From an uncultured Gammaproteobacteria bacterium (GTDB lineage: Bacteria > Patescibacteriota > Microgenomatia > Woykebacterales > RBG-16-39-9b), in assembly GCA_964360785.1 (NCBI GenBank), contig CAYHXX010000002.1, positions 92,107-156,106 on the forward strand: 64,000 bases of DNA. The letters run 5' to 3'. How positions within the stretch are numbered: position 1 is the stretch's first letter; every line of letters starts with the position of its first letter. Position numbers and translations under genes: made by a program. The notes under the pieces are model-generated. The model was given only the letters and a program-made list of their open reading frames with translations, was not told where the DNA came from and did not search any database. Below are positions 20,904 to 54,477 of the stretch, in pieces.

Positions 20904-21175
20904 ATGCCCAAAAGTTGCACCTTAAAAACCAAATAGCAAGCAAAGAAAGAGAGAAACTCCTTGATCTCTCATCAGGGGACACTCCGCAGAAATTAGAAAT
21001 TGCTGAAGGGTGCCCCTTGATGAGAATGCATTTTGCACTCATCGAAGGGTTAACCACGTAACCATCTTCTTTTAAGCGCGCCTTAGGGTGCAGCTTGGGA
21101 GGGTGTTTGGGTAACCAATTCGGTAGTGCATAGGCACTTAGCTTTTGATGGCTAGGACCATCAAGGAGGATCAGA

Positions 21176-35210: not shown

Positions 35211-37220
35211 ATGGAAAAATCTCTTTACAACCAGGTCGGTGAAATAAAAGGTGCTTCTTCAGAAACTGAAGATGCCTTTAGTTTTCAATTCACCCCTCAA
35301 AATGAAAATCTTAAAAGAACTAGAGGTGCGCTTTTTACACTTGTTTCAATTTCCGGAAAAACTGATGAACGCTACGAAAAAGCCAAGGATATCTACCATC
35401 AATTCCAGAGCAGTTATTACGCCAAGGCCACGGGAAGTATTCTTCACGGGCTTTCTGAGACCTTGGAGCAGCTTTCTGAAGGGCCCTTAAGAAAACAAAA
35501 AGAGGAAGGGTTGAATATTTCAGTAATAGCTGCAGTTTTCTGGGGGACTGTCGTCTACCTTTCAAAATATGGGGAAGGTGCTGTTTTTGTTGCCCGAGCC
35601 GATAAAGTCAAAAAACTTGATTTCGCCAAAGTTGCTAGTGGGGTGCTCGAAGATCAAGATACTGTTTGTTTGGCAACAGAGAGTTTTGTTACCGCGGTGA
35701 CCTTGGACGAACTTACGGAAAGTTTGACAAAGGAAAAATTTGAAGACTCCTTGGAGACCCTGGATAAAAAAGTGGAGAAGGTTCAAGGAGCCGTGTGCGA
35801 TGTGATTCGGTTATCAGTTAATGCTCCAACGGAAACAACAGAGGACTTGGCGATCGCCGAAGTAAATGAAAAAGGTGAGATGGAATCAACGGAAGCTCCA
35901 GAGGAAAAGAGCGAAGATGAAACACAAAAAACGGAACATCTAGAATCAGACGCGGAGTCAGAGAAGCCTGTGGAAAGCAAAGCAAACGACCCGTTTGAAC
36001 AGGCAATAGAGAAGAAACAAAACCCGCTCAGTAAGGTTCTACCGACGGTTAAAGGTTTTGCAGGAAATTTCACCAAATCTATCCTTAAAGTTTGGAGAAG
36101 GCCAGAGCCCGGAGAGCATCACGATCCTGTTGCTATCCGTCGAACTAGAATCATTCAGGCGGTTGGTCTAATACTAATAATTTTGATAATTAGTATCGGT
36201 TTCGGAATATTTTCCCAAGGAGCAGAAAAGAAAGACAATAAAGTCAGTAATCTGATAACCTCAGCACAAAATGGTTTAAATGAAGCCAGCAACATCAAAA
36301 CAATCGATCCAAACAGGGCACTATCATTGGTAAACAAAGCCCAAAAGGATTTAGAAGAGGCAAAGAAAACTGATGAAGATAACAAGCAAATTACAGAACT
36401 GCAGAGTAAAAGTACTGATCTCGAGGCGGAGATAACCAAAACAACAAAGATTAAGGATCTGGAAACCGTATTTGATTTTGGTACTCTACACAAAGGTACC
36501 GCTATCACAGACGCGGCCCTCTTGGGTAACCAATTGCTTTTGATTGATGCTAATCAAGGATTTCTGTATGAACTGTTGTTAGATGACAAGAGGGCAACAG
36601 AGGTGAGTAAAACAGATACTTCGGTGCAGACAATCGTTTCTTATCCAGCTGGTTTCTATCTCAGCGGGCAAAGTGGTATTTCCAAGGTGGATTCTAGTTT
36701 GAAAATTTCTTCAATCGGAACAAACGCCAATTGGGGAAAAATTCGAAGCTCAGCAACCTATCAAAATAACCTCTACCTACTGGACACTGAAAAAAATGAA
36801 ATCTGGCGGTACCTCTCAACCTCAACTGGCCTGGGCAGTGCCCGAGCTTATGTCAGCGGGGAAAAACCTGACATGAGCGCCGCAGTGGCAATTGCGATTG
36901 ACGACCTTGTGTGGGTAGCAAATAAAAATGGTACTGTTTATAAATTTGCTTCTGGTAAGCAACAAGAAAATTTCGCAATCTCTGCTCTTGCCGATCCGAT
37001 TGGAGAGCTTTCAGACATGTTTACTAGCAGCTCGACCAAAAATCATTATTTTCTGGATAAGGGAAAAGCACGGATTGTATCAGTAGATAAAAAAGGTGTT
37101 TACCAAGCTTCTTATACAAATAACCAGCTTCACAAGGCCGATACTTTGTTGGTAGACGAAACACAAAAAATTGTGTACTTTACAGCGGAATCCAAACTTT
37201 ACCAATTTAAACTGCCATAA
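35211..37220 (+). CDS. hypothetical protein (~669 aa) with central TM helix and C-terminal beta-rich domain
   Basis: AAGGTGG SD before MEKSLYNQ; the track ORF starts earlier at 35172. Confidence 0.6.
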   Translation: MEKSLYNQVGEIKGASSETEDAFSFQFTPQNENLKRTRGALFTLVSISGKTDERYEKAKDIYHQFQSSYYAKATGSILHGLSETLEQLSEGPLRKQKEEGLNISVIAAVFWGTVVYLSKYGEGAVFVARADKVKKLDFAKVASGVLEDQDTVCLATESFVTAVTLDELTESLTKEKFEDSLETLDKKVEKVQGAVCDVIRLSVNAPTETTEDLAIAEVNEKGEMESTEAPEEKSEDETQKTEHLESDAESEKPVESKANDPFEQAIEKKQNPLSKVLPTVKGFAGNFTKSILKVWRRPEPGEHHDPVAIRRTRIIQAVGLILIILIISIGFGIFSQGAEKKDNKVSNLITSAQNGLNEASNIKTIDPNRALSLVNKAQKDLEEAKKTDEDNKQITELQSKSTDLEAEITKTTKIKDLETVFDFGTLHKGTAITDAALLGNQLLLIDANQGFLYELLLDDKRATEVSKTDTSVQTIVSYPAGFYLSGQSGISKVDSSLKISSIGTNANWGKIRSSATYQNNLYLLDTEKNEIWRYLSTSTGLGSARAYVSGEKPDMSAAVAIAIDDLVWVANKNGTVYKFASGKQQENFAISALADPIGELSDMFTSSSTKNHYFLDKGKARIVSVDKKGVYQASYTNNQLHKADTLLVDETQKIVYFTAESKLYQFKLP

Positions 37221-37224
37221 GCAT

Positions 37225-37755
37225 ATGAGCAGTGAAATCGTTAATAAAAAAGCCGGTTTTAACTATTTTCTTCAAGACCGCCTCGAAGCAGGAATTGCTT
37301 TGACCGGTGGTGAGGTCAAGTCAGTTAGATCCGGAAGTGGTAGCTTAGACGAGGCTTATGTGAGGATAATCGATGGCCAAGCCATACTAGTTAATTGCTA
37401 CATAGCTCCCTATAAGTTTGCTCTCGACCCTTCTTATGATCCAAAAAGAGAAAGAAAGCTACTTTTGAATAAGCAAGAAATCGAGCACTTGGCGGGGAAG
37501 GTAGGTTCAAAGCACTTGACAAATTCTGATTTGCGAACCCGCTCTGGCGGGTTGACTTTCAGCAAGAATGCGAAGCCGTCAGGCTTGACAATTGTGCCTA
37601 CAAAGGTGTATAATTCGCACAACCTAATAAAGGTTGAAGTAGCAATTGGTACCCCGAAGAAAAAATTTGATAAGCGTGAGGATTTGAAGAAAAAAGCAAT
37701 CCAACGCGAGACTGAAGGGTTCCTGAGAGCAGAAAAAGCTAAAAACAAAAATTAG
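37225..37755 (+). CDS. smpB: SsrA-binding protein SmpB
   Basis: AGFNYF..LEAGIALTGGEVKSVR motif; the track ORF 37171 has an N-terminal over-extension. Confidence 0.85.
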   Translation: MSSEIVNKKAGFNYFLQDRLEAGIALTGGEVKSVRSGSGSLDEAYVRIIDGQAILVNCYIAPYKFALDPSYDPKRERKLLLNKQEIEHLAGKVGSKHLTNSDLRTRSGGLTFSKNAKPSGLTIVPTKVYNSHNLIKVEVAIGTPKKKFDKREDLKKKAIQRETEGFLRAEKAKNKN

Positions 37756-37766
37756 GTACTTATCTT

Positions 37767-38125
37767 GGGGATGTTGTAATTCGACGAGATGCACTTTTCA
37801 TTCAGAGCAGGCCGACCGTGATCAAATAAGTCGTAAAACTGATTGATTAATCATAAATGCTAATAAGGCATTTTCTCCTTCTTACGCTTACGCCTAAGAA
37901 GCATCCTGACTACTCTCTCTTGACGGAGTTTTTATGGGTGTAAACAAGACAAGACTAATCTAGAAAGAGTTGGTCCCTTTTTCTAGGTACAGACCTTATC
38001 AACAACCTTACTCCGTACAAGTTGGTGGCTGGTAACTACGGAGGAAATATTTCAGTCACCTAAGCTTGTAGTTGCTGCTGGAAATTGTTTTTCGGACCTC
38101 GGTTTGAATCCGAGCATCTCCACCA
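37767..38125 (+). ncRNA. ssrA: tmRNA (ssrA)
   Basis: 5' GGGGATGTTGTAATTCGACGAG and 3' GGACCTCGGTTTGAATCCGAGCATCTCCACCA tRNA-like ends; candidate tag ORF GCT AAT AAG GCA TTT TCT CCT TCT TAC GCT TAC GCC TAA (ANKAFSPSYAYA). Confidence 0.75.
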
Positions 38126-38132
38126 TCACGAA

Positions 38133-38164
38133 GACCCACTCAAAAAGTGGGTTTTTGTGTTTTT
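38133..38164 (+). terminator. rho-independent terminator after tmRNA
   Basis: CCCACT/AGTGGG stem plus T-run. Confidence 0.6.
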
Positions 38165-38213
38165 AGCCCACGAAGTGGTCGCAAAGCGCGGAGCGATTTT
38201 ATAGAATGGATCC

Positions 38214-38879
38214 ATGAATCTGTTGGATTTTATTTTTCCGAAGCAATGTGTCGCCTGCAAAAAGTTTGGTTCTTACCTATGTGGAGATTGTTTAGAAAGA
38301 ATTGAGTATTTGGAAATTCAAACCTGTGCTTATTGTTATAAACCTGCAATTTCGGGCAAAACCCACCCCAAGTGTTTCAAGAAGTTTGGTCTTGACGGCG
38401 TAGTGTCTCTAACTAATTACAAAACTCCAGTAAAAGAGCTGATTAAAAGTTTGAAGTATCGCTACACTACGGATTTGTTAAAAGAAATTGAGGAGAAATT
38501 TACTTTTCGAGATGAGGTTATCTTAGAAAGAAATTCAGTACTTCTACCTTTGCCCTTGTTCGAATCACGCAGAAATTACCGAGGTTTTAACCAAGCAGAA
38601 CTTTTAGGCCAAATTGTGGCCAAGAGGCTAGGGCTTTCTTACAAAGACGATTTGTTGCAACGAATAGTAGCGACGAAACCTCAGGTTGGACTGTCCCAGA
38701 AACAGAGGGCTGAGAATGTCAGAAACGCTTTTGGTTTGAAAAATGAATTGGAAAAGACAACCTACTATGTCTTTGATGATGTTTGGACCTCAGGTGCTAC
38801 CTTGAAAGAAGTCGCGAAAATACTGAAACAAGCAGGAGCTGAAGTAGTCTGGGGTTTGACATTTTCCCACCCTCGTTGA
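38214..38879 (+). CDS. ComF family protein (phosphoribosyltransferase-like, ComFC)
   Basis: N-terminal zinc-finger cysteines plus C-terminal PRTase motif VFDDVWTSGATL. Confidence 0.7.
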   Translation: MNLLDFIFPKQCVACKKFGSYLCGDCLERIEYLEIQTCAYCYKPAISGKTHPKCFKKFGLDGVVSLTNYKTPVKELIKSLKYRYTTDLLKEIEEKFTFRDEVILERNSVLLPLPLFESRRNYRGFNQAELLGQIVAKRLGLSYKDDLLQRIVATKPQVGLSQKQRAENVRNAFGLKNELEKTTYYVFDDVWTSGATLKEVAKILKQAGAEVVWGLTFSHPR

Positions 38880-38918
38880 AGGAAAGGTAATCTTCTGCTA
38901 AAATGTCCAGGTTCATGT

Positions 38919-39007
38919 GGAGGGTTGCCCGAGTGGCTTAAGGGGACGGTTTGCTAAACCGTTGGCGCGAAAGTGTCACACAGGTTCGAATCCTGTACCC
39001 TCCGCCA
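38919..39007 (+). tRNA. tRNA-Ser(GCT)
   Basis: Cloverleaf with long variable arm, anticodon loop TTGCTAA, GGTTCGAATCC T-loop, CCA encoded. Confidence 0.85.
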
Positions 39008-39046
39008 GAACTAGTATTAAAAACTTCTCGAAAAAGTAGTATATTA

Positions 39047-39136
39047 GGAGGGGTGGCCGAGTGGTTTAAGGCGTTGGTCTTGAAAACCAATGTAGCAGAA
39101 ATGTTACCGGAGGTTCGAATCCTCCTCCCTCCGCCA
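39047..39136 (+). tRNA. tRNA-Ser(TGA)
   Basis: Long variable arm, anticodon loop CTTGAAA. Confidence 0.85.
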
Positions 39137-39211
39137 CGTACGAAATCAAAGATTTCTACGTGGCTAGAGACGTAGTTTTGAATACAAAACGTACGTCTCG
39201 CCAAAGAAATT

Positions 39212-39817
39212 ATGCCCAAACAAACTGCTAAAAAAGAATCAATTGAAGAACTCAAGAAACAGCTTAACAACCTTCAAGGCAAAGTAGCCGAATATGAGAC
39301 TGTTTCGGTACCAGCACAACAACCTACATTTGAAGTCAAAGAACTTTATTTCTGGAAAGCTCCTGAACGAATTTTTATTCCCAGAAACCGTAAATGGTAC
39401 ACCTATCTTTTTCTGATGCTACTGATAATGATCTTGGTACTGCTTTTCCTCAAGCAATTTATCATCATCGCGCCAATCGCCGCCTTAGGTTTTGTTACTT
39501 ATGTGCTGGCGAGTGTACCGCCTCACAATGTTACTCACAAACTAACAAATGAAGGAATCAATTCTGAGAATAAAAGTTATTTGTGGACAGAACTTTATGA
39601 TTTTTGGTTAACCAAAAAAGGAGATCAAGGAATGATCCATATAGATACTTACCTAAATTACCCGCGGAGGTTGATTCTCCTTGTGGGGGAGGGTGATGTA
39701 GAAAAGATAAAGCAAACCATGTTGCAGTTCATACCATTCCGAGAACTACCTAAAGAAAGTTTCATGGACAAGGCCGCTAATTTCCTCTCAGAAAAATTCC
39801 ACAAAATTGCCAGTTAA
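39212..39817 (+). CDS. hypothetical two-TM membrane protein (201 aa)
   Basis: ORF between tRNA genes with central hydrophobic helices. Confidence 0.55.
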   Translation: MPKQTAKKESIEELKKQLNNLQGKVAEYETVSVPAQQPTFEVKELYFWKAPERIFIPRNRKWYTYLFLMLLIMILVLLFLKQFIIIAPIAALGFVTYVLASVPPHNVTHKLTNEGINSENKSYLWTELYDFWLTKKGDQGMIHIDTYLNYPRRLILLVGEGDVEKIKQTMLQFIPFRELPKESFMDKAANFLSEKFHKIAS

Positions 39818-39855
39818 TTTCCCTACATAAGTTATAATAGTTAAACCCAGAATTT

Positions 39856-39881
39856 GTCCCAGTAGCTCAGTTGGATAGAAC
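39856..39881 (+). other. tRNA 5' fragment (acceptor plus D-arm) matching tRNA-Arg(CCG) at 42662
   Basis: GTCCCAGTAGCTCAGTTGGATAGAAC matches the first 25 nt of the 42662 tRNA with one change. Confidence 0.4.
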
Positions 39882-39945
39882 TTTTTTGAGAGCTAGATCA
39901 AAAAAGGTTCTGCGTCCTTCGGACTAAGAGCGTAGGTAATGATAT

Positions 39946-40021
39946 GCCCCCGTAGCTCAGTGGATAGAGCGCAACGTTGCGGACGTTGAGGCCGTAGGTT
40001 CGAATCCTATCGGGGGTACCA
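39946..40021 (+). tRNA. tRNA-Arg(GCG)
   Basis: Standard cloverleaf, anticodon loop TTGCGGA, G1-T72 wobble in the acceptor stem. Confidence 0.7.
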
Positions 40022-40068
40022 GAATTGGAGTTCGACTTTTTGCGAAGCAAAATGTGCGTAGTGTCCTC

Positions 40069-40080
40069 TCTGGGACGCCA
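40069..40080 (+). other. tRNA 3' fragment (CTCTGGGACGCCA), complementary partner of the 39856 5' fragment
   Basis: Identical to the acceptor 3' strand plus discriminator-CCA of tRNA-Arg(CCG). Confidence 0.35.
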
Positions 40081-40095
40081 TTTGTTATTTAACGT

Positions 40096-40185
40096 GGAGG
40101 GGTGGCTGAGCGGTTGAAGGCGCTGGTTTCGAAAACCAGTGTACTGGAAACGGTACCGGAGGTTCGAATCCTCCTCCCTCCGCCA
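40096..40185 (+). tRNA. tRNA-Ser(CGA)
   Basis: Long variable arm, anticodon loop TTCGAAA. Confidence 0.85.
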
Positions 40186-41091
40186 ATAGTTAACGAAAGG
40201 TTTGTTTCAATCATTTTCAAATAAATAATGAATATCTTTGTATCGGGTTCCCTCGCCTTTGATAACATCATGGATTTTCCTGACCATTTTCGAAATCATA
40301 TTTTGCCTGGTAAAACGCACAACCTAAATGTCAGTTTTTTGATAAACAGTTTAAAAACTAATTTTGGGGGAACAGCTGGAAACATTGCATATAGTTTGGC
40401 TTTGCTGGGGGAAAGGCCAATTATTCTGGCCACCGCTGGAAAAGATTTTGATAAATATAAAGATTGGTTGAGTATACACGGGGTCGACATTTCCCACGTC
40501 AAAATAATTGATAATGAGATGACAGCAACGGCCCATATTATTACAGATAAAAGCGATAATCAAATTACTGCATTTTACCCAGGTTCGATGAAATATCCTG
40601 GAGTAGCATTAAGTGCTGGGTTACTAAGTAGAGACTCGTTGGCGATAGTTTCTCCAGGCTACATGGGGGACATGTTAAGTTATGTCTCTAGTTATAATAA
40701 AAATAAAGTTTCCTATATTTTTGACCCCGGTCAGCAGATTCCAGCACTAACCCCTGAAGAAATTAAAAAAGGCATAGCAGGAGCTAAAATTTTTATTTCA
40801 AATGACTACGAAGTGTCTCTAATTTTGGAGAAAACTGGTTGGACTGAGACTGATATAATGGGCAAAGTTGAAATTTTAGTTACCACTTTCGGAGGGAAGG
40901 GTTCGGTAATCAAAAGTAAAGGGAAAATATATTCAATTCCAGCAGCAAAACCTAAAAATCTTAAAGACCCAACAGGAGCGGGGGATGCTTATCGGGCGGG
41001 TTTTATTAAAGGTCTTATTGATGGTTTGACTCTAGATAAAATTGGCCGATTAGCAAGTGTAGTTTCGGCCTATGCGGTTGAGACATATGGA

Positions 41092-42627
<1,536 letters not shown>

Positions 42628-42661
42628 TTGTCGAAACCAGATTGCTGTAAATAAAATGAAT

Positions 42662-42737
42662 GTCCCAGTAGCTCAGTGGATAGAGCGTTAGCCTCCGGAG
42701 CTAAAGGTCGAAGGTTCGAATCCTTTCTGGGACGCCA
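42662..42737 (+). tRNA. tRNA-Arg(CCG)
   Basis: Cloverleaf, anticodon loop CTCCGGA. Confidence 0.85.
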
Positions 42738-42743
42738 GAATCT

Positions 42744-43160
42744 ATGTTCAAATTTGAAGAATCCGCCGGTGGGATAGTTTTCAAAAAAGAAAATTCTCAA
42801 ACTTACATTCTCGTGACCCAACACTCCCAACACCATGGTTGGGTTTTCCCAAAAGGCCTGATCGATAAAGGTGAAGATAAACAAACAACAGCAGTTCGTG
42901 AGGTTAAGGAGGAAGGTGGGGTTGAGGCAAAAATAACCAAAGAACTTTCATCAGTTGAGTATTTCTATAAATTTGAAGGCAACACAATCAAAAAGAAAGT
43001 TACCTACTTTCTGATGGAGTATGTTTCCGGAAATATACAAGATCATGATTGGGAGATGGAAGCTGCGGAATGGTTGTTCATAGAGCAAGTAGAAGAGCGT
43101 CTCACCTACAAAACCGATAAGCAAGTATGGAGTAAAGCTTTAGAAATTCTCACCAAATAA
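42744..43160 (+). CDS. NUDIX hydrolase
   Basis: Nudix box REVKEEGGVE. Confidence 0.75.
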   Translation: MFKFEESAGGIVFKKENSQTYILVTQHSQHHGWVFPKGLIDKGEDKQTTAVREVKEEGGVEAKITKELSSVEYFYKFEGNTIKKKVTYFLMEYVSGNIQDHDWEMEAAEWLFIEQVEERLTYKTDKQVWSKALEILTK

Positions 43161-43175
43161 AATTTAAAAGAATTT

Positions 43176-43214
43176 GGGGCTCGCAACACACGGGAGGATG
43201 TGTGGTGAGAGCCC
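43176..43214. terminator. long GC-rich hairpin, putative bidirectional terminator at the edge of a high-GC islet
   Basis: GGGGCTCGCAACACAC...GTGTGGTGAGAGCCCC inverted repeat. Confidence 0.4.
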
Positions 43215-43223
43215 CGGGAGCTG

Positions 43224-43805
43224 TTACAGGACCAGAGGGTTCGCGCTGCTACTAGCTGTCGACGAGGTGCCGAGCGATCCTACGACGGTCGCAAGGCGGT
43301 GAGCTATTCCGGCGACGGAGGAGGGATTCGCTGCCACTCTTCCTCTCAGCCGTCGGGCTTTCTTCACGTCGTCGATACCGCCGTCAAACGTTGTCGCGCC
43401 GGACGTGCGCTGCCGCCACATCGGGTTGCCGTGCTGCGCCTCGGATAACAGGGACGCGAACGTTCGTCTGAGGTAGTCGAGAGCCGAGCTTGTCAACAGG
43501 ATCGCGCCGGTCGCCAGCAGCAAAGCCATGATCGCTAAAGCTGCCGTTGGGTGACCGGTCGCCGTCGCCGTGATCATCGACGCTGTCTTCGCCGCGTCGC
43601 TCGTGACGAACGCCGCTGCTCGAGGGACGTCAGTGGTCGGTGTCAGCACGACCTGGGCGCGCTGAGTCATCTGGCTCACGATCGTCATCCCGTCGGAGAG
43701 CGACGGTGGGGAGATCGAGCCATCGTGTGCCGTGCGGTAGCCGAAGCCCAGTACCAGGGCCGCGACCGCTGCTAGCACCGCGAATCGGAAGGTTAACTCC
43801 CGCAT
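43224..43805 (-). CDS. hypothetical Ala-rich membrane protein (193 aa) in a high-GC islet
   Basis: Around 62% GC against a ~40% background; N-terminal and central hydrophobic helices. Confidence 0.5.
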   Translation of the reverse strand: MRELTFRFAVLAAVAALVLGFGYRTAHDGSISPPSLSDGMTIVSQMTQRAQVVLTPTTDVPRAAAFVTSDAAKTASMITATATGHPTAALAIMALLLATGAILLTSSALDYLRRTFASLLSEAQHGNPMWRQRTSGATTFDGGIDDVKKARRLRGRVAANPSSVAGIAHRLATVVGSLGTSSTASSSANPLVL

Positions 43806-44099
43806 CTAATTGCCTCCTTGGTCAGTTGGGTGATCCTTCACCCGGATCTGGCCGATTCTTGTCTTTTCAGTGCCTCACAACGAGAGGTTTACTGGTAACT
43901 AACCGTCATCCTCGGCCGAGTTATGACAACAGCGTAGCCAGTTTCTTTCTCGTCACTTGGCCTTCTACCTCCTTTCTTCCTCCAAGTCGCGGCAAATCCG
44001 CAATCCACGCGGGGTCCGTTATAAAATATTTATATGCTTGCTTGACCGTTTTGTCAAACCTAACTAGCGGTGATGTAATATAATGTTGTTTCGACTTCT

Positions 44100-44191
<92 letters not shown>

Positions 44192-44197
44192 AATATC

Positions 44198-44470
44198 ATG
44201 GAAAATGAAACCAGAGTTAAAAGACTCGAAGAAGAAATTGAAAAAATAAAAGCCCGTAATGAAAAAGTGGAGCGGGATAAGAGGTGGGAAACAAGTTTGT
44301 TCCGGGCTGTGAGTGTTGGGTTACTAACTTATTCTGTAATGGTTGTTTTTATGCTCTCTATTTCTATTGAGAAGCCTTTTATTAACGCGATCATTCCAAC
44401 TCTTGGGTTTTTGTTGTCCACATTTTCCCTCCCGTTTCTAAAGAATTTTTGGATAAGAAAACAAAAATAG
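44198..44470 (+). CDS. small coiled-coil plus two-TM membrane protein
   Basis: The track ORF 44132 begins inside the tRNA; first ATG lies after the tRNA. Confidence 0.5.
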   Translation: MENETRVKRLEEEIEKIKARNEKVERDKRWETSLFRAVSVGLLTYSVMVVFMLSISIEKPFINAIIPTLGFLLSTFSLPFLKNFWIRKQK

Positions 44471-44515
44471 AGCCTGGCTTGCCTTACGTTACTTTATCCT
44501 CTATTATGCTTTTCA

Positions 44516-46291
44516 ATGGAATCCCAAGTTCAAGAAGTTAAAAATAAAATAGATATTGTTCAACTAGTTTCAGGCTATGTTTCTTTGAAAAAAGCTGGTC
44601 GAAACTACAAAGGTCTTTGTCCATTTCATAGTGAGAAAACCGGATCTTTCATGGTCTCACCGGAACGACAAATATTTAAATGCTTCGGCTGTAATGAAGG
44701 TGGTGACGCCCTTACTTTTTATCAGAAGATCGAAGGTGTGGAGTTTGTAGATGCTCTAAAAGCTTTAGCAGCAAAAGCCGGAGTACAAATAAAGGAGTAC
44801 AAGACTAATCCTAACGAATCGCAGAGAGAAGAGTTTGTTCGCATAAATTCGTTGGCAGCTGAGTTTTATCATTTTCTCCTTACCAAACACCAAAGTGGAA
44901 AGAAAGCACTAGAGTATTTAAAAGGTCGGGGTTTGACGGAAAAAACCATTGTTGACTGGCAAATAGGATTTGCCCCTGATTCCTGGGACACAACCTACAA
45001 ATTCCTAATAAAGAAAAAACTTAACCCAAAAGATATTAGCGCCTCTGGTTTGGCAATACCTTCAACAAGGCAGAGCCTGCCTGCCGGCGGGCAGGGAGCC
45101 TATGACCGCTTTCGCAAACGGATCATGTTTCCGATCCGTAATATTTCTGGGACAATAGTTGGTTTTTCAGGAAGGATTTTTGGAGAAGGCGAGCCAAAAT
45201 ATCTCAATTCCCCAGACAACCTGCTTTTCAACAAAAGTAACAATCTTTTTGGATTGGACAAGGCAAAAGGCGAGATTAAAAAAGAGAATCTAGCTGTCCT
45301 AGTGGAAGGAAATCTTGATGTGATCATGTCTCACCAAATCGGAGTCGCCAATGTAATCTGTCCATTGGGTACGGCCCTCACCGAGAAACAACTAGATTTG
45401 CTGAGGCGATTTGCTGACCAGCTGGTGGTGAGTTTTGACCAAGATGTTTCTGGACAAAAAGCCGCCTTGAGAGCAGTCGAGCTTGCTGAAAACCAGGGGT
45501 TAACCTTGAAACTAACAGAACTATCGGAAAAAGATCCGGATGAGCTGATACGCAAAAATCCAAGTGCCTGGAAAAAAGCACTTGCGAATTCAGTACCAAT
45601 CTACGATTTTCTAATAAATTCTTTACAAAACCGTTACGGTACAAAAGATCATAGTGCTCTGAGAAAAATCACCAAAGAAGTACTACCTTATATTGCCAGA
45701 ATTGATAATGATATTACCCGGTCTCATTATGAAAGGTTACTAGCTTCTAACCTGGGTGTAAGCGAGGATTCAATAAAAACTGAACTCTCAAAGCTAGGTA
45801 CACCTGAGACTTCAGTAAAATTGGCAGATACAGTAAAGCCATTGAGTAGCGAAAGGTTGAAACTGGAAACCTATCTTCTGGAGCTGATTTTCCAATCTGG
45901 AATAATTCCAGAAGGAGTAGAGAGTGAGCAGTTTGAGGTCAGACAATTTTGTACTTTATTTGAACTAGCTAAACAAAGCTCTCGCAACAAGCACTTTTCT
46001 GTCAAGGAAATTGAAATTCCAGAGGAGCTGTCCGAAATATTTGACAGACTTACACTTGTCGAGATTGGTGAAGATATATTGAATAGTCAAGCAGAAATGC
46101 AGAAAGAGATTGATACTTGCACCCTCCGTTTAAAAGCGTTAAACTTACGAACTGAATTAAAGAAAATAACGCTTGCTATCAAGCAAGCTGAAATAACTAA
46201 GGATAGTATTCAAGTAGAAAACTTCACAAAGAAGTTTCAAGATTATTCCAATAAGCTTGCGCTGCTTGAGAAGCAAAAAGAACTTATTTAA
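44516..46291 (+). CDS. dnaG: DNA primase
   Basis: CHC2 zinc finger CPFHSEKTGSF..CFGC, Toprim domain. Confidence 0.9.
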   Translation: MESQVQEVKNKIDIVQLVSGYVSLKKAGRNYKGLCPFHSEKTGSFMVSPERQIFKCFGCNEGGDALTFYQKIEGVEFVDALKALAAKAGVQIKEYKTNPNESQREEFVRINSLAAEFYHFLLTKHQSGKKALEYLKGRGLTEKTIVDWQIGFAPDSWDTTYKFLIKKKLNPKDISASGLAIPSTRQSLPAGGQGAYDRFRKRIMFPIRNISGTIVGFSGRIFGEGEPKYLNSPDNLLFNKSNNLFGLDKAKGEIKKENLAVLVEGNLDVIMSHQIGVANVICPLGTALTEKQLDLLRRFADQLVVSFDQDVSGQKAALRAVELAENQGLTLKLTELSEKDPDELIRKNPSAWKKALANSVPIYDFLINSLQNRYGTKDHSALRKITKEVLPYIARIDNDITRSHYERLLASNLGVSEDSIKTELSKLGTPETSVKLADTVKPLSSERLKLETYLLELIFQSGIIPEGVESEQFEVRQFCTLFELAKQSSRNKHFSVKEIEIPEELSEIFDRLTLVEIGEDILNSQAEMQKEIDTCTLRLKALNLRTELKKITLAIKQAEITKDSIQVENFTKKFQDYSNKLALLEKQKELI

Positions 46292-46325
46292 ATATCCCGC
46301 TAAAGCGTGATATAAATATGAACTT

Positions 46326-47390
46326 ATGGCAAAAGCAGATTCCCCAATCCAAGAACTAATTACTCGTGGTCGTGAGCAGGGTTTTGTGACCCAAGAAGAC
46401 ATCCTCGCACTTTTTCCTGAAGCCGAAAGCAATGTCGAAGAACTTGATGACCTTTATAGCCGTTTGGCAGAAGAAGGTGTTGATGTCTTTGACACTGCGG
46501 AAGAAGACCAAAAACAAAGTGAACTTGAGAAAGAACTCGAAATAATCCAGGCAGTTGAGGAAGCCCAGATCACCGATCCAGTGAGAATGTATCTCAAGGA
46601 AATTGGTAGAATCTCCCTGCTGACAGGTAAAGAAGAAATCGATTTGGCGCAAAGAGCGGAAAACGGTGAGATTGAGGCAGTTGAAAAGTTGACCCAGGCA
46701 AACCTGAGGTTGGTTGTATCGATTGCAAAAAAATATGTTGGTCGAGGACTTACTTTGCTGGATCTTATCCAAGAAGGCAATATTGGTTTGATCCGAGCAG
46801 TCGAGAAGTTTGACTGGCGTAAAGGTTTTAAATTCTCAACCTATGCCACCTGGTGGATCCGCCAAGCAATTACCCGGGCAATTGCCGATCAAGCCCGAAC
46901 TATCCGAATTCCTGTCCACATGGTGGAAACAATCAACCGTTTCATCCGTACTTCCCGTAAACTTATGCAAGAACTCGGAAGAGAACCGTCCCCTGAAGAA
47001 ATTGCCAAAGAAATGGGAATTGAACCCGAGAAGGTACGGGAAATTATCAAAGTTTCCCAAGAACCAACCTCACTCGAAGCTCCGGTTGGGGAAGAAAAAG
47101 ACTCAACGCTTGGAGATTTTATTCCCGATGACGAGATCCGACCAGAAGATCAGGCCAGTGCTGAGCTGCTTAAGGCTCACCTTGGCGAAGTACTCGATAC
47201 ACTTAATGACCGCGAGAAAAAAGTTCTCAAACTGCGTTTCGGTCTCGAAGACGGTCGACAACGAACTTTGGAGGAGGTTGGAAAAGAGTTTGGTGTCACT
47301 CGAGAGCGTATTCGTCAGATCGAAGCTAAGGCCCTGCGCAAACTGCGCCACCCCACGCGCTCCAAAAAGCTCAAAGATTACCTTGAATAG
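46326..47390 (+). CDS. rpoD: RNA polymerase sigma-70 factor (RpoD/SigA)
   Basis: Regions 2-4 present, [18 protein letters not shown]. Confidence 0.9.
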
Positions 47391-47438
47391 TAGTAAGAAT
47401 TTGCAGCAAATTTATTTTTTAAGTAAAATATTTCGTTC

Positions 47439-47909
47439 ATGGGATTTAATTCACTTACATTTGGTTTTCTTGAATATCACCAGGTGATTGAGAAGATAGC
47501 CGCTTATATCAAAGAAGACGCTGATTCGGTCTACAAAATTATTGTCGGTAGCGACTCTGAAGCCAAAATTGGAGATGTTGATTTTGTCACTGCGATTATC
47601 GTCCACCGCCTGGGCAAGGGTGGAATCTATTTCTGGCAAAAACAAAAAATACGAAACCAATACAACATGCAGCAACGCATCGGTCATGAAACCCAACTTT
47701 CCCTTGAACTGGCCTGGAAGATTCGCGACAGCTTTCAGCACAACGGGCTTTCAGGTTATGAACCTGAAGTTCATATAGATATTGGTTTGATCGGAGTTTC
47801 CCGCGATATGGTCAAATGGGTGACCGGAATGGTCTTGGGTAGCGGGTTTGCCTATAAGATCAAACCAGAAAGTTTTGCTGCCTCAACAGTTGCTGATCGT
47901 TATACTTAA
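47439..47909 (+). CDS. hypothetical protein (possibly DUF458/YkuK-like RNase H-fold)
   Basis: 156 aa; weak resemblance only. Confidence 0.45.
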   Translation: MGFNSLTFGFLEYHQVIEKIAAYIKEDADSVYKIIVGSDSEAKIGDVDFVTAIIVHRLGKGGIYFWQKQKIRNQYNMQQRIGHETQLSLELAWKIRDSFQHNGLSGYEPEVHIDIGLIGVSRDMVKWVTGMVLGSGFAYKIKPESFAASTVADRYT

Positions 47910-48013
47910 GCGATTTTGATTACCAACCAACGAAACCATAAAACCAGAATAACTATAATCGATAAAACAAGAAGAGCAAAAGTAGTAATCGCAAAAGCAG
48001 CTAAGGGAATTTT

Positions 48014-48334
48014 TCATCTTACCTTTTTTATATCGTTCTTAACTTTCTCTTTTATCTCAGAGCCTCTTCTTTTAATTTTTTCTTCAATTTCTGGGTCCAT
48101 ATTTTTCAGATGCGCTAGTAGAGATTCGTCATTAGGTTCTTTATTAAACTGAACTATAAAACTTTCATGATGCTCAATTGGTAAACAGTCTAGACAAATT
48201 GCCAAGATCTCGTGGTGAAACGTTGAGTCAATCAAGTTAAGTAGGTGATAGTGCTCTTGAGTAGGTAGCTTGAGAACCAGTAAGTCTTGGTGCAGTTCGT
48301 CCAAACCAACTAAATGGTCATAAAAAACACTCAT
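48014..48334 (-). CDS. hypothetical protein (106 aa), coupled to the upstream His-rich gene
   Basis: 4-nt overlap with 48331..48912. Confidence 0.45.
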   Translation of the reverse strand: MSVFYDHLVGLDELHQDLLVLKLPTQEHYHLLNLIDSTFHHEILAICLDCLPIEHHESFIVQFNKEPNDESLLAHLKNMDPEIEEKIKRRGSEIKEKVKNDIKKVR

Positions 48335-48912
48335 AGTTCTTTCTCCTGATGATTTATTCCTAAGTCTTCAGGGTGAGGCCCTGGGCTTTTTGCTTTACCG
48401 TGGTCGTTATCCTCACCACGGTGCAATCCTAAATCATGAAACCCATGCTCTTTTGGTGGAGCCATATAGCTACGACCGTGAATGTGGCCTTGGGATTTCT
48501 TGTCATCGCTGTCTCGGCCATTTACCTGTGAAGGTGAGTGACCAGCCAGGTTGTTATGAATATTTGTGTTTGAAGTTGGTGTTTGCTGGTTCTTGTGCGA
48601 CAAGCCTCCGTCTGGCTTTTCTATCTGTTTTTCAATACTCAAGGTTTTCAAATTTGGTTCATGTTTTGTTTCGAGAGGAGGATTTCCCAGTAAATGGGGA
48701 AATGCCAAAAAAGCTCCCAAAACTGTTGCTGCAGTAGCCGCCTTGACTCCTTTGCGGCGAATTTGTTGTAAATCAATATTGTGACGGGCAAAGATATCTC
48801 TGGTGTGAGGGTGTTTTTCATGGAGAGCCTGTTTAGAAGAGCGTTCGTTGTGGGATAAGATTCTCGCTATATCTTGGAATTTATTTTGATTACGGAAGTT
48901 AAAAAAGGACAT
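48331..48912 (-). CDS. His-rich membrane-anchored protein (193 aa)
   Basis: Single TM helix, C-terminal half with many His/Gly/Asp. Confidence 0.5.
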   Translation of the reverse strand: MSFFNFRNQNKFQDIARILSHNERSSKQALHEKHPHTRDIFARHNIDLQQIRRKGVKAATAATVLGAFLAFPHLLGNPPLETKHEPNLKTLSIEKQIEKPDGGLSHKNQQTPTSNTNIHNNLAGHSPSQVNGRDSDDKKSQGHIHGRSYMAPPKEHGFHDLGLHRGEDNDHGKAKSPGPHPEDLGINHQEKEL

Positions 48913-48987
48913 TAAGGTTATTATAAGTTATGAATAACTTCCCAGCAAGCTAGCCTTGGTTGGCAGTATTCTTAGAATGCAACGGAG

Positions 48988-49015
48988 TTGATTTTGATCT
49001 GAGCTTGTGTATAAT
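48988..49015 (+). promoter_or_regulatory. sigma-70-like promoter for tRNA-Asn (TTGATT-16-TATAAT with TGTG extension)
   Basis: -35 at 48988-93, -10 at 49010-15, about 20 nt before the tRNA 5' end. Confidence 0.45.
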
Positions 49016-49035
49016 AATCGAGTCCAAGTCTACAT

Positions 49036-49110
49036 TCCCCGGTAGCTCAACGGTAGAGCACCTCGCTGTTAACGAGATTGTTGTAGGTTCGAATCCTACC
49101 CGGGGAGCCA
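49036..49110 (+). tRNA. tRNA-Asn(GTT)
   Basis: Cloverleaf, anticodon loop CTGTTAA, CCA encoded. Confidence 0.85.
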
Positions 49111-49150
49111 GAAAAAGGCGATTGAGTTTATCTCAAGCGTCTTTTTCTTG
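49111..49150 (+). terminator. conserved terminator-like hairpin (copy 1 of 3)
   Basis: GAAAAAGGCGATTGAG-TTTA-TCTCAAGCGTCTTTTTC; homologous copies at 53109 and 54295. Confidence 0.5.
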
Positions 49151-49214
49151 TTTTCAGGGATGAGAACCTATGTGAGAATCCCTAGCTTTCTTAAGCGCAG
49201 GTCGCGCTAGCGAT

Positions 49215-49229
49215 CTACCCGGGGAGCCA
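49215..49229 (+). repeat. 15-nt direct repeat of the tRNA-Asn 3' end (CTACCCGGGGAGCCA), att-like
   Basis: Exact copy of 49096-49110, 105 nt downstream of the tRNA. Confidence 0.6.
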
Positions 49230-49290
49230 AATATTTTAGCCTCAAACTCTACGCATTCCTCAAAAGTAAAGTTTATTATATAATCCACTC

Positions 49291-49605
49291 GTGACTTTAA
49301 AGAAACTACAGAAAAGAATCTTTGCAAACAAAATTAAACAGGGTTTTAATATCTCTTCAGACTACAAGGGTATCAGTCATGAAATTTCGTTGTTGGTAGA
49401 GGAGTTAGGTGAGTTGGCACGAAGTCATAGGAGAGGTAACAAGGAAGGCATTGTTGATGCTAACATCGATTTATTAGTTCATATATTGGGGCTGATGGAA
49501 ATATTGGGATTAGATGGAGATGAAGAGGTGGGAAAAGTATTGATTGAAGTAGAAAAAAGGAAGTATGCCAAGGGTGCTGACGGAACTTATAAAAGACTTA
49601 AATAA
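49291..49605 (+). CDS. MazG-like nucleotide pyrophosphohydrolase (small)
   Basis: EELGELA motif, 104 aa. Confidence 0.55.
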   Translation: MTLKKLQKRIFANKIKQGFNISSDYKGISHEISLLVEELGELARSHRRGNKEGIVDANIDLLVHILGLMEILGLDGDEEVGKVLIEVEKRKYAKGADGTYKRLK

Positions 49606-49641
49606 AAAGTTTCCACATACTGAGTCATAGCAGAAAGATAG

Positions 49642-50061
49642 TCAGGATTTTTTTAAAGCCTCTACCAAAATTTCGTTTGTCCCTGGAAGGGAATCTAGAT
49701 CCTTTACTTTATCTAGTTCCACCCAATCAACTTTCTGGACGTGATGGTCTTCTGGTTTTTCATCTTGCGAAACGAAATCGCACACAAAAATAAAGCATAG
49801 AGTTTGCTGATTGCCCCAATCATACTTCCAGTAATTTGTCTGCACGTAGGGAAGTAAGCGGTTTACTGTTACCTTAACACCTGTTTCCTCTAGTACCTCT
49901 CGAACAATTGCCTCTTGTGGAGTTTCACCGAAATCAGCTTTACCACCAGGATATTCCCATTTTAGATGAGCGTCAGGAAGCTCACTTTCCTTACGCAATG
50001 TCATCAATAATTTGTTGTCTTTGATTACAACTGCCGAGAAAACAGTAATTTGCTTATCCAT
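49642..50061 (-). CDS. NUDIX hydrolase
   Basis: Nudix box GGKADFGETPQEAIVREVLEETG. Confidence 0.7.
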   Translation of the reverse strand: MDKQITVFSAVVIKDNKLLMTLRKESELPDAHLKWEYPGGKADFGETPQEAIVREVLEETGVKVTVNRLLPYVQTNYWKYDWGNQQTLCFIFVCDFVSQDEKPEDHHVQKVDWVELDKVKDLDSLPGTNEILVEALKKS

Positions 50062-54260: not shown

Positions 54261-54287
54261 AATATGTTCTAACATCGCCCACTAGGT

Positions 54288-54361
54288 GGAGCCAGAAAAA
54301 GGCGACTGAAATCTTTCAGGCGTCTTTTCTCGTTTTCAGGGATGAGAACCTACGTGAGAAT
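54288..54361 (+). repeat. degenerate repeat end (GGAGCCA), then a conserved hairpin (54295..54332), then the 30-nt element GTTTTCAGGGATGAGAACCTACGTGAGAAT
   Basis: The same hairpin-plus-30-mer arrangement follows tRNA-Asn at 49111..49179. Confidence 0.55.
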
Positions 54362-54477
54362 AGTACTTTTGCGAAGCAAATGCAGAGAGCGTTGGCGACC
54401 CACCTACGAAGCCAGTTTATTCCGTTACCTATTGACAATAATTAAGAAAACTCAGAACATTGATACAATGCCAGATC

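Follow-up and report, generated by a model that had tools for sequence, protein, structure and literature searches.

Stranded ends of a displaced tRNA-Arg(GCG) allele around an intact one: a probable relic of allele replacement in a candidate-phyla-radiation bacterium

In the window studied here, a stretch of 64,000 nucleotides (nt) from contig CAYHXX010000002.1 of an uncultured bacterium, an intact tRNA-Arg(GCG) gene lies between two fragments that look like the two ends of another tRNA gene. The question that this locus raises is what the outer fragments are: the halves of an interrupted tRNA gene that is still in use, the footprint of an integrated element, or the remains of a gene that has been replaced. 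We consider, with a probability of roughly 0.78, that they are a pseudogene relic of an in-situ allele replacement at a recombination hotspot. The closest relative with a retrievable region, locus L090, in which the upstream open reading frame (ORF) is identical to that of the window at 173 of 204 amino acids (aa), has at this position a single intact tRNA-Arg(GCG), GTCCCAGTAGCTCAGTTGGATAGAGCGTCAGTTTGCGGAACTGAAGGTCGGAGGTTCGAATCCTCTCTGGGACGCCA, with acceptor strand GTCCCAG, and it is this T-type gene that the outer fragments match, while the gene between them is a different, G-type allele.

The organization of the locus, with all coordinates being positions in the window and the order read directly from 39790-40200, is as follows, with the tRNA-Arg(CCG) gene further downstream included for comparison.

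39833..39838, + strand: TATAAT box, putative -10 element of the tRNA operon promoter, 17 nt before the 5' relic
39856..39881, + strand: 5' relic of the displaced T-type tRNA-Arg(GCG), GTCCCAGTAGCTCAGTTGGATAGAAC, tRNA positions 1-25, 25/26 identity to the intact L090 gene
39882..39923, + strand: palindrome-rich insert in the D-arm of the relic (hairpin 1, TGCG, hairpin 2)
39924..39945, + strand: second D-arm piece, CTAAGAGCGTAGGT, then an AT-rich leader up to the inner tRNA
39946..40021, + strand: intact tRNA-Arg(GCG), G-type allele, acceptor GCCCCCG, presumably functional (called by ARAGORN; Rfam tRNA 69.4 bits, E 9e-14)
40022..40035, + strand: GAATT trailer, then relic T-stem 5' strand GGAG and first T-loop half TTCGA
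40036..40063, + strand: 28-nt insert in the relic T-loop, holding the perfect hairpin TTTTGC-GAA-GCAAAA (40038-40052)
40064..40080, + strand: 3' relic, TCCTCTCTGGGACGCCA, consisting of T-loop TCC, T-stem 3' strand, acceptor 3' strand CTGGGAC, discriminator G and CCA
40096..40185, + strand: tRNA-Ser(CGA), next gene of the conserved Arg(GCG)-Ser(CGA) pair, 15 nt past the 3' relic
42662..42737, + strand: tRNA-Arg(CCG), with a GTCCCAG acceptor backbone like that of the relic

The two tRNA-like fragments around an intact tRNA-Arg(GCG) that an earlier note had described are thus real. The 5' relic comprises the acceptor 5' strand GTCCCAG, TA, the D-stem 5' strand, the D-loop and a mutated D-stem 3' strand, GAAC. 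The T6/A6-flanked hairpin that the same note had placed between the fragments is present at 39882-39905; it belongs to hairpin 1, with the arms GAAC-T6 (39878-39887) and A6-GGTTC (39900-39910) around a 12-nt loop, which is followed by the TGCG motif at 39911-39914 and by hairpin 2, TCC-TTC-GGA, at 39915-39923. The D-arm piece CTAAGAGCGT then occupies 39924-39933 ahead of the inner tRNA, and CTAAGAGCGTAGGT contains the 3' part of a D-loop, the D-stem 3' strand GAGC, position 26 and about 5 nt more. This GAGC is complementary to the GCTC of the relic, the corresponding pairs in relatives being GTTC/GAAC or GCTC/GAGC. On the other side of the inner gene, GGAGTTCGA at 40027-40035 is the relic T-stem 5' strand with half of the T-loop, separated from the 3' relic by the 28-nt insert, and GAATYGGAGTTCG is common to the window and the related locus L025, including an identical one-G deletion. 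The 13-nt 3' fragment, CTCTGGGACGCCA, is present as claimed, but it lies at 40068-40080, starting one base before the 40069 given previously, and the full relic extends over 40064-40080. The outer acceptor strands, GTCCCAG and CTGGGAC, can form 7 bp without a mismatch. In all, the relic spans tRNA positions 1-25 on the 5' side and 49-76 on the 3' side, its anticodon arm is lost, and its ends are separated from the inner gene by 64 and 42 nt of ORF-free DNA.

What stood here before? Syntenic loci from many samples were gathered via homologues of the upstream ORF, and the gene order of this ORF, tRNA-Arg(GCG), tRNA-Ser(CGA) and often tRNA-Arg(CCG) is kept down to about 30% protein identity. At L090 the intact Arg gene stands behind the shared TATAAT box and a TATAATAGTTAAACC-AGAATTT leader and is followed by a similar spacer and tRNA-Ser(CGA), the whole being collinear with the window save for the inserted block. 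The relic agrees with this intact gene at 25 of 26 positions on the 5' side, including an unusual extra T in the D-loop, and at 17 of 17 on the 3' side. The earlier note had taken the fragments for a paralog of the tRNA-Arg(CCG) at 42662; the GTCCCAG backbone is indeed common to both, but the agreement with that gene is 24/26 and 16/17, and its T-stem differs, so that the fragments are better described as an allele of tRNA-Arg(GCG). The match to L090 together with the collinearity implies that the window carries an L090-like T-type gene in which positions ~26-57 have been swapped for ~185 nt. As to the anticodon GCG, which had been thought uncommon for Arg in bacteria, every related locus covering this gene position has tRNA-Arg(GCG), and GCG is therefore the normal Arg anticodon of the lineage.

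The same TATAAT box is found in relatives 14-18 nt ahead of either a 5' relic or an intact tRNA. A strict sigma-70 consensus scan did not call the box at 39833, because the -35 element is poor; with the -35 element weak, it is from the conservation of the box alone that we infer a promoter.

Before the origin of the fragments is considered further, chance and faulty assembly have to be weighed. The 13-mer CTCTGGGACGCCA, with at most 1 mismatch, is found solely here and in tRNA-Arg(CCG), with 0.06 occurrences expected by chance. The 25-nt Arg 5' consensus, searched ungapped with at most 3 mismatches, matches only the two intact Arg tRNAs, with 0 expected; this search misses the 5' relic because the relic carries a 1-nt insertion, and the first 16 nt of the 5' relic were picked up without mismatch in the search with intact tRNA ends described below. 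Chance does not account for the two fragments. An artefact joining the alleles of two strains might be suspected since the source is a metagenome and since the window has elsewhere a tandem duplication of ~209 bp that is missing from two other assemblies. However, two contigs from separate assemblies of the 0.1-µm fraction of Hainich groundwater carry the 201-aa ORF whose end lies 38 nt upstream, and both contigs are 100% identical to the window over the tRNA region, which means that the nested structure is no assembly artefact. Moreover, the spacers hold unique sequence present in neither allele, and similar nests occur in samples from other pipelines (NCBI, JGI, Logan, ENA). An assembly artefact is thus so improbable as to be practically negligible.

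The genes for tmRNA and SmpB lie just upstream of the tRNA cluster, homologues of the 201-aa ORF carry a Saccharimonadales label from one source, and the host is a small-celled bacterium of the candidate phyla radiation. Note also that the SmpB ORF at 37171-37755 is at its longest 194 aa, from an upstream TTG start, compared with 152-164 aa in relatives, and that the window copy also seems to have an additional segment in its interior.

Is the outer copy functional? It could be supposed that the fragments belong to a functional nested, split or intron-containing tRNA, as the earlier note had allowed, or to a tRNA-like scaffold RNA, in which the outer acceptor stem and T-arm fold round the inner tRNA and promote its processing or its stability, or in which the halves are joined after its excision. 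Such a supposition can draw on the perfect 7-bp acceptor helix, on the complementary T-stem strands, on the stem changes between the close pair L071 and L074, which retain pairing via G-U, and on the fold of the region as one molecule, a check that the note had proposed: the minimum-free-energy fold of the 226 nt does pair both ends (z = -2.2), but the single-sequence folds of leaders and spacers are mostly no better than those of shuffled sequences, with the exception of the L021 leader (z = -3.1). The relic T-stem strands match not only in the window (GGAG/CTCT) but also in L021 (GTAG/CTAT) and in relics of Ser genes (GTGAG/CTCAC and GAAGG/CCTTC). Since matching acceptor and T-stem strands are inherited from the parent tRNA, they are no evidence of function; they indicate instead that each relic was formerly one contiguous tRNA.

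The remaining data speak against a functional outer copy. ARAGORN, run on the region and also with introns allowed on the excised 226 nt, calls the inner Arg gene only, leaving the outer fragments uncalled. A search of 37000-50000 with Rfam cmscan at E<=1 gives 69.4 bits for the inner tRNA and no family over the relics or spacers, with neither Intron_gpI nor any other ribozyme. When the outer copy is spliced by hand, with its three interruptions removed, ARAGORN makes no call at default stringency, and at the relaxed setting -ps80 it gives just 'tRNA-???' with a 2-base anticodon. The outer copy thus forms no complete cloverleaf and is unrecognised by tRNA models, as is expected of a pseudogene. 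No obvious helix was seen by eye beside the inner tRNA, where no formal search for bulge-helix-bulge (BHB) motifs was made. Furthermore, both halves occur together at just 4 loci with relics, 10 of 24 loci are free of relics, and L019 has substitutions that disrupt the relic hairpins. Between L071 and L074, 5 of 69 nt differ in the relic, compared with 0 of 58 in the promoter region and 0 of 77 in the tRNA, so that the relics, besides being patchy, change faster than their functional neighbours, albeit in a small sample. With the anticodon arm absent, and with the outer parts absent or decayed in many relatives, we consider a functional nested or intron-type arrangement extremely unlikely.

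Two particular forms of it do not fit the data. A split tRNA or a tRNA with an archaeal-type intron does not fit as the joined exons give no complete tRNA with an anticodon arm, and a group I intron does not fit as there is no match to the catalytic core and the interruption is 185 nt long, 76 nt of which are a tRNA. The comparison with known systems leads to the same distinction. In the split, permuted and multi-intron tRNA genes of Nanoarchaeum, Caldivirga and Cyanidioschyzon (reviewed in PMC4390854 and PMC3978253), the interruptions also fall in the regions of the D-loop, the anticodon and the T-loop, and the parts can pair through the acceptor stem; those genes, however, encode a complete tRNA after processing, with BHB motifs and a splicing endonuclease, whereas in the window there is no anticodon arm, the host is bacterial, with tmRNA and SmpB nearby, and the pieces have decayed in relatives. 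Similarly, group I introns in the anticodon loops of bacterial tRNAs (PMC3984707) resemble the present case in that a bacterial tRNA gene, here one for tRNA-Arg, is interrupted near the anticodon loop, but here there is no intron core, the insert is a tRNA with short hairpins, and the exons cannot rebuild a tRNA.

If the outer copy is a dead gene, is it an isolated accident? The comparison of orthologous clusters, which the earlier note had advised, answers this question. In a census of 24 non-redundant loci, 5' relics are present at 13, 3' relics at 5 and neither at 10 (L023, L028, L032, L068, L076, L078, L080, L084, L087 and L090). Only a 5' relic is found at L019, L066, L071, L072, L074, L081, L082 and L089, and a truncated one at L027; L025 has a 3' relic only; and the two halves occur together at the window, L021, L029 and L073. 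Locus L021 is the reciprocal of the window, with G-type fragments (5' ACTCCCGTAGCT..., 3' ...ATCCTATCGGGGGTGCCA) around an intact T-type gene, L029 also has a nested arrangement, and L073 is doubly nested, with a T-type 5' relic, a G-like 5' relic, an intact third allele (acceptor GCGCTCG) and a T-type 3' relic. The parsed 5' relics (window, L019, L021, L027, L029) start 15-18 nt past the TATAAT box, and this is where the intact gene starts in relic-free genomes. The options of the earlier note that a tRNA gene had been disrupted by an inserted tRNA or bears an integration scar, taken here as one, are supported by the undisrupted orthologue in L090 and by these recurring relics.

When the ends of the 135 intact tRNAs were all used as queries, further relics emerged, namely those of the Ser genes with anticodons CGA, TGA and GCT and that of Asn, the last at window 49214-49229. 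The tRNA-Asn(GTT) region of the window (49111-49229) has its own 3' relic, TCTACCCGGGGAGCCA, at 49214-49229, ~100 nt downstream of the gene. A paralogous segment of ~120 nt at 54283-54410 opens with an Asn-like 3' end, ...GGTGGAGCCA, and closes with ...CCTACGAAGCCA; it shares with the Asn relic region GAAAAAGGCGA, a terminator-like hairpin and GGGATGAGAACCTAYGTGAGAAT, and it also holds the palindrome TTTGCGAAGCAAA discussed below.

The alleles themselves are the next piece of evidence. They were compared in eight related genomes, with tRNA-Ser(TGA) of the same cluster as control. The identity between alleles ranges over 69-100% for Arg(GCG) and over 62-93% for Ser(CGA), unrelated to the divergence of the adjacent ORF, while that of the control is 91-100% in 7 of the 8 genomes, the exception being L021 (81-84%). 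Thus the Arg allele of the window is 100% identical to that of L025, where the ORF has 62.6% nucleotide identity, and 77.6% identical to that of L019, where the ORF has 71.9%. The acceptor stems at this locus include GCCCCCG, GTCCCAG, GTCCTCG, GCGCTCG, GTACTCG and GCCTTCG. An R-type backbone (GCGCTCGTAGGTCAG...CGAGCGCGCCA) carries the anticodon CCG in L019 (4953-5028) and GCG in L073 (469-544), and this implies that the anticodon has switched or that the two Arg loci have undergone exchange. These sequence patterns suggest that horizontal replacement took place repeatedly, in some cases cleanly and in others with relics left behind.

Other DNA has entered the cluster as well. In the window a two-gene insert of 2.4 kb (40228-42627), absent at this site in relatives, lies between tRNA-Ser(CGA) and tRNA-Arg(CCG), and it consists of a PfkB-family kinase ORF (40228-41163) and an S-adenosylhomocysteine (AdoHcy) hydrolase ORF (41368-42627). 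In relatives the gap between Ser(CGA) and Arg(CCG) is 1-52 nt, or a sortase gene occupies the slot downstream of the tRNAs. The nearest PfkB genes in a species-level genome collection are from Chloroflexia, at ~47% identity, which suggests that the pair was acquired horizontally; the PfkB scan of this collection returned only genes of Chloroflexia, Actinomycetota and Acidobacteria, at 37-48% identity, and no syntenic relatives. Between the two ORFs lies the ~209 bp tandem duplication mentioned above (41092-41503); the two other assemblies without it have the genes 3 bp apart, and either faulty assembly or variation between strains may account for it. In addition, there are GC-rich islands at 43200-43900, 1-4000 and 21000-24000, with 52-57% GC, whereas the remainder of the window has ~41%. 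The first of these islands (43.2-43.9 kb) separates a NUDIX gene from tRNA-Ser(GGA), two genes that are neighbours in relatives, and carries an Ala-rich minus-strand ORF at 43224-43805; the island DNA is possibly foreign.

A hotspot of this kind calls to mind the classical attachment-site (att) scar. Genes for tRNAs are the standard targets of integration, and partial tRNA copies are its usual footprint. According to this explanation, an element with a tyrosine integrase would have entered the tRNA gene, supplied a replacement part and later been deleted. Like att duplications by integrating elements, the locus has non-functional tRNA ends, uncalled by tRNA finders, beside an intact tRNA at a horizontal-transfer hotspot, the cluster is an insertion hotspot, and several 3' relics do duplicate the end of the intact gene beside them (Ser(GCT) in L021 and L025, Asn at window 49214). 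In the window, however, the fragments (GTCCCAG) flank, on both sides, a complete gene of another allele (GCCCCCG), with no direct repeat of the intact gene's end bounding an integrase element; a 5' part with positions 1-25 and a 3' part with positions 49-76, lacking the anticodon arm, would not be expected from strand exchange in one loop; no integrase is found among the ORFs flanking the cluster and no element body is seen; and the T-loop is interrupted by palindromes and not regenerated. We therefore regard an att scar as a very unlikely origin.

Another parallel is the tRNA-Thr(GGU) locus of Caldiarchaeum subterraneum, where a 5' fragment is separated from another allele downstream by a 1.8-kb element encoding a recombinase, an arrangement that the authors read as replacement via mobile DNA (Sugahara et al. 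2012, PMC3293823). Both cases show heterogeneity of a population or lineage at a single tRNA locus, with a 5' fragment stranded before another intact allele. The outcome in Caldiarchaeum was tied to archaeal introns and splitting, whereas here the host is a bacterium, the intervening DNA is less than 100 nt and ORF-free, and there is no splicing.

We now turn to the features of the relics that are more regular than expected. In the relic D-loop, the left break never lies more than ~2 nt from GGATAG, and it is followed by hairpin 1, (C/T)TGCG, hairpin 2 and CT(A/T)AGA-N-CG. This layout, with differing stem sequences, is present in the window, L021, L066, L071, L072, L074 and twice, in both layers, in L073, while L019 has a decayed layout with TGAGA in place of TGCGA. 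The leader module of TGCG, hairpin 2 and CTAAGA-N-CG stands ahead of inner alleles of three types. It is also seen on its own at L029 5440-5480 (likewise in L030, L031, L064 and L065) as ATAGAGCGC-TAAA-GCACTC-TGCGA-CCAC-TTCG-GTGG-GCTAAGATCG, in the interval that separates the NUDIX gene from the tRNA-Ser(GGA) promoter, with no Arg tRNA adjoining.

On the right side, in the 3' relics that retain the T-arm 5' strand, the T-loop is broken inside GGTTCG^ATCC by one or two small palindromes. These belong to families common to relics of different tRNAs in different genomes and essentially absent outside relic contexts: TTTGCGAAGCAAA occurs at window 40039, at window 54368 and in the relic T-loop of L029; CGGATTGGATGCGAAGCATC occurs in the Arg relic of L025 and the Ser relic of L032; and TTTTCGC-N-GCGAAAA occurs in L029, L073 and L089 and, in L032, beside a minus-strand Ser relic. 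In the 64 kb there are two GCGAAGC palindromes, both in tRNA-relic contexts. Inserts of the form GGGATGAGAAG..., similar to the paralogous segment at 54283-54410, occupy the T-loops of Ser relics in L066 and L082. A further perfect palindrome, GTGTAAACGTTTACAC, with variants, is seen in tRNA-cluster spacers of the distant relatives L066 (~3330-3350) and L073 (~640-665 and ~870-890); it looks like a protein-binding site.

Several other interpretations of these elements were weighed. That TGCG is what remains of an anticodon, and that the hairpins arose as fold-back copies of nearby parts of tRNAs, is plausible in L021 and L081 but unconvincing in the window. The others were rejected. The defining features of IS200/IS605-type ends, IS91-type ends, integron attC sites, K-turns, the 11-nt tetraloop receptor and uptake sequences are missing. 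Genome-wide REP elements do not fit either, with only two GCGAAGC palindromes per 64 kb, both linked to relics.

This regularity weighs against a simple relic of allele replacement. A repeated layout, with a hairpin exactly inside GGTTCG^ATCC, is more order than random decay predicts; relic stems of differing sequence still pair; and the Ser(GCT) 3' relics of L021 and L025 are identical over the last 16 nt despite ~62% ORF identity, which could reflect selection or gene conversion. Replacement as such leaves the regular T-run/A-run palindromes in the D-loops and T-loops unexplained. Moreover, no recombinase, target-site duplication or donor element was identified for it, and thus the insertion step is inferred.

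The order could be accounted for by a dedicated miniature mobile cassette, without ORFs, bounded by hairpins and ~150-200 bp long, that carries a complete tRNA-Arg(GCG) and enters a resident cognate gene specifically in the interval from the D-loop to the T-loop or anticodon loop, with repeated insertions giving nests of the Russian-doll type; the host cell would survive because the element supplies a working tRNA copy. The constant left junction, ~2 nt from GGATAG|, the nested layers of L073, the leader module that precedes three types of inner allele and stands alone in L029 at 5454, and the identical palindromic strings of 13-20 nt (CGGATTGGATGCGAAGCATC, TTTGCGAAGCAAA) in the T-loops of different tRNA relics in different genomes are what such a cassette would produce. 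Yet no transposase or integrase lies inside the unit or consistently adjoins it, and the right junctions vary, falling in the T-loop or beyond the 3' end. For the most part the D-stem and T-stem strands flanking the inserts match one another, and this suggests that one old gene received small insertions separately and not a single cassette. Nor was a copy found in viral, phage or plasmid collections: a scan of viral contigs for GTTCG..GCGAAGC..TTCATCC gave 30 matches, all in ORFs of GC-rich phages and about as many as the chance estimate, the scan for the core of the G-type allele gave 0 matches, and a phage and plasmid BLAST with the whole unit returned generic tRNA-Arg genes over the inner tRNA only, the flanks being unmatched. 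A cassette of this kind thus appears doubtful.

Another way to read the order, equally speculative, is that the tRNA genes of the lineage are recurrently attacked at DNA motifs of the D-loop and T-loop by a nuclease or a tiny palindromic mobile element. The nuclease would be structure- or sequence-specific and is possibly, by analogy, one of the small GIY-YIG proteins encoded in the cluster. Cells would survive by taking a foreign allele into the damaged gene, and the relics would stay immune because the small palindromes destroy their loop motifs, giving a self-perpetuating turnover of tRNA within tRNA. The analogy is with SegB of phage T4, a GIY-YIG homing endonuclease encoded in a tRNA cluster that drives the preferential replacement of the tRNA region of a rival phage with a foreign version (Brok-Volchanskaya et al. 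2008, PMC2330249) and whose recognition site includes a conserved 11-bp motif of the T-psi-C stem-loop (PMC2330249). The T-psi-C motif is exactly where the present relics are interrupted, and ORFs of GIY-YIG type (PF01541) lie in the cluster of L091 (1338-1619, 93 aa, E 1.4e-16), between tRNA-Ser(GCT) and tRNA-Ser(TGA) and adjoining a Ser 3' relic, and of L029 (5749-5985, 78 aa, E 2.9e-16). Unlike SegB, these ORFs of 78-93 aa hold the catalytic domain without a DNA-binding domain, and SegB homing is not reported to result in nested relics. A crude regular-expression search for the GIY-YIG motif found no ORF in the 64 kb of the window. Replacement driven by a SegB-like GIY-YIG enzyme is offered here as a hypothesis.

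Returning to in-situ replacement, the reading that we prefer, we propose the following sequence of events. A resident T-type tRNA-Arg(GCG) would once have stood directly behind the promoter at 39833. Its positions ~26-57 would then have been exchanged for ~185 nt of incoming DNA bearing the G-type allele, presumably acquired horizontally by transformation or recombination, and most likely from a divergent relative by recombination at the tRNA cluster. The outer ends of the resident gene would have been stranded on both sides, where they would now be included in the 5' leader and the Arg-Ser spacer of the precursor transcript and take no part in decoding; the relic would be co-transcribed and removed by RNase P and 3' trimming.

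Compared with the known types of tRNA relic, what is new here is the recurrence, the reciprocity and the loop-specific palindromes. Full-text searches of an incomplete library of papers did not turn up any account of bacterial nested tRNA relics that have palindromes in their loops, which does not by itself prove novelty.

For annotation, the finding means that the fragments are dead and should not be called tRNAs, while the enclosed tRNA-Arg(GCG) is the ordinary tRNA of the lineage. For evolution, the locus provides an unusually clear case of the in-place displacement of one tRNA allele by another, with empty-site, reciprocal and doubly nested forms all available, and it means that horizontal exchange brings about turnover of core tRNA genes in groundwater bacteria with reduced genomes. 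If the palindromes mark a targeted process, these loci would offer a bacterial model for the interruption of tRNA genes, which has so far been argued mainly from archaeal split and intron-bearing tRNAs; and if recurrent attack on the loop motifs is the true explanation, they would be a bacterial counterpart of the mobile-element model for the disruption of archaeal tRNA genes.

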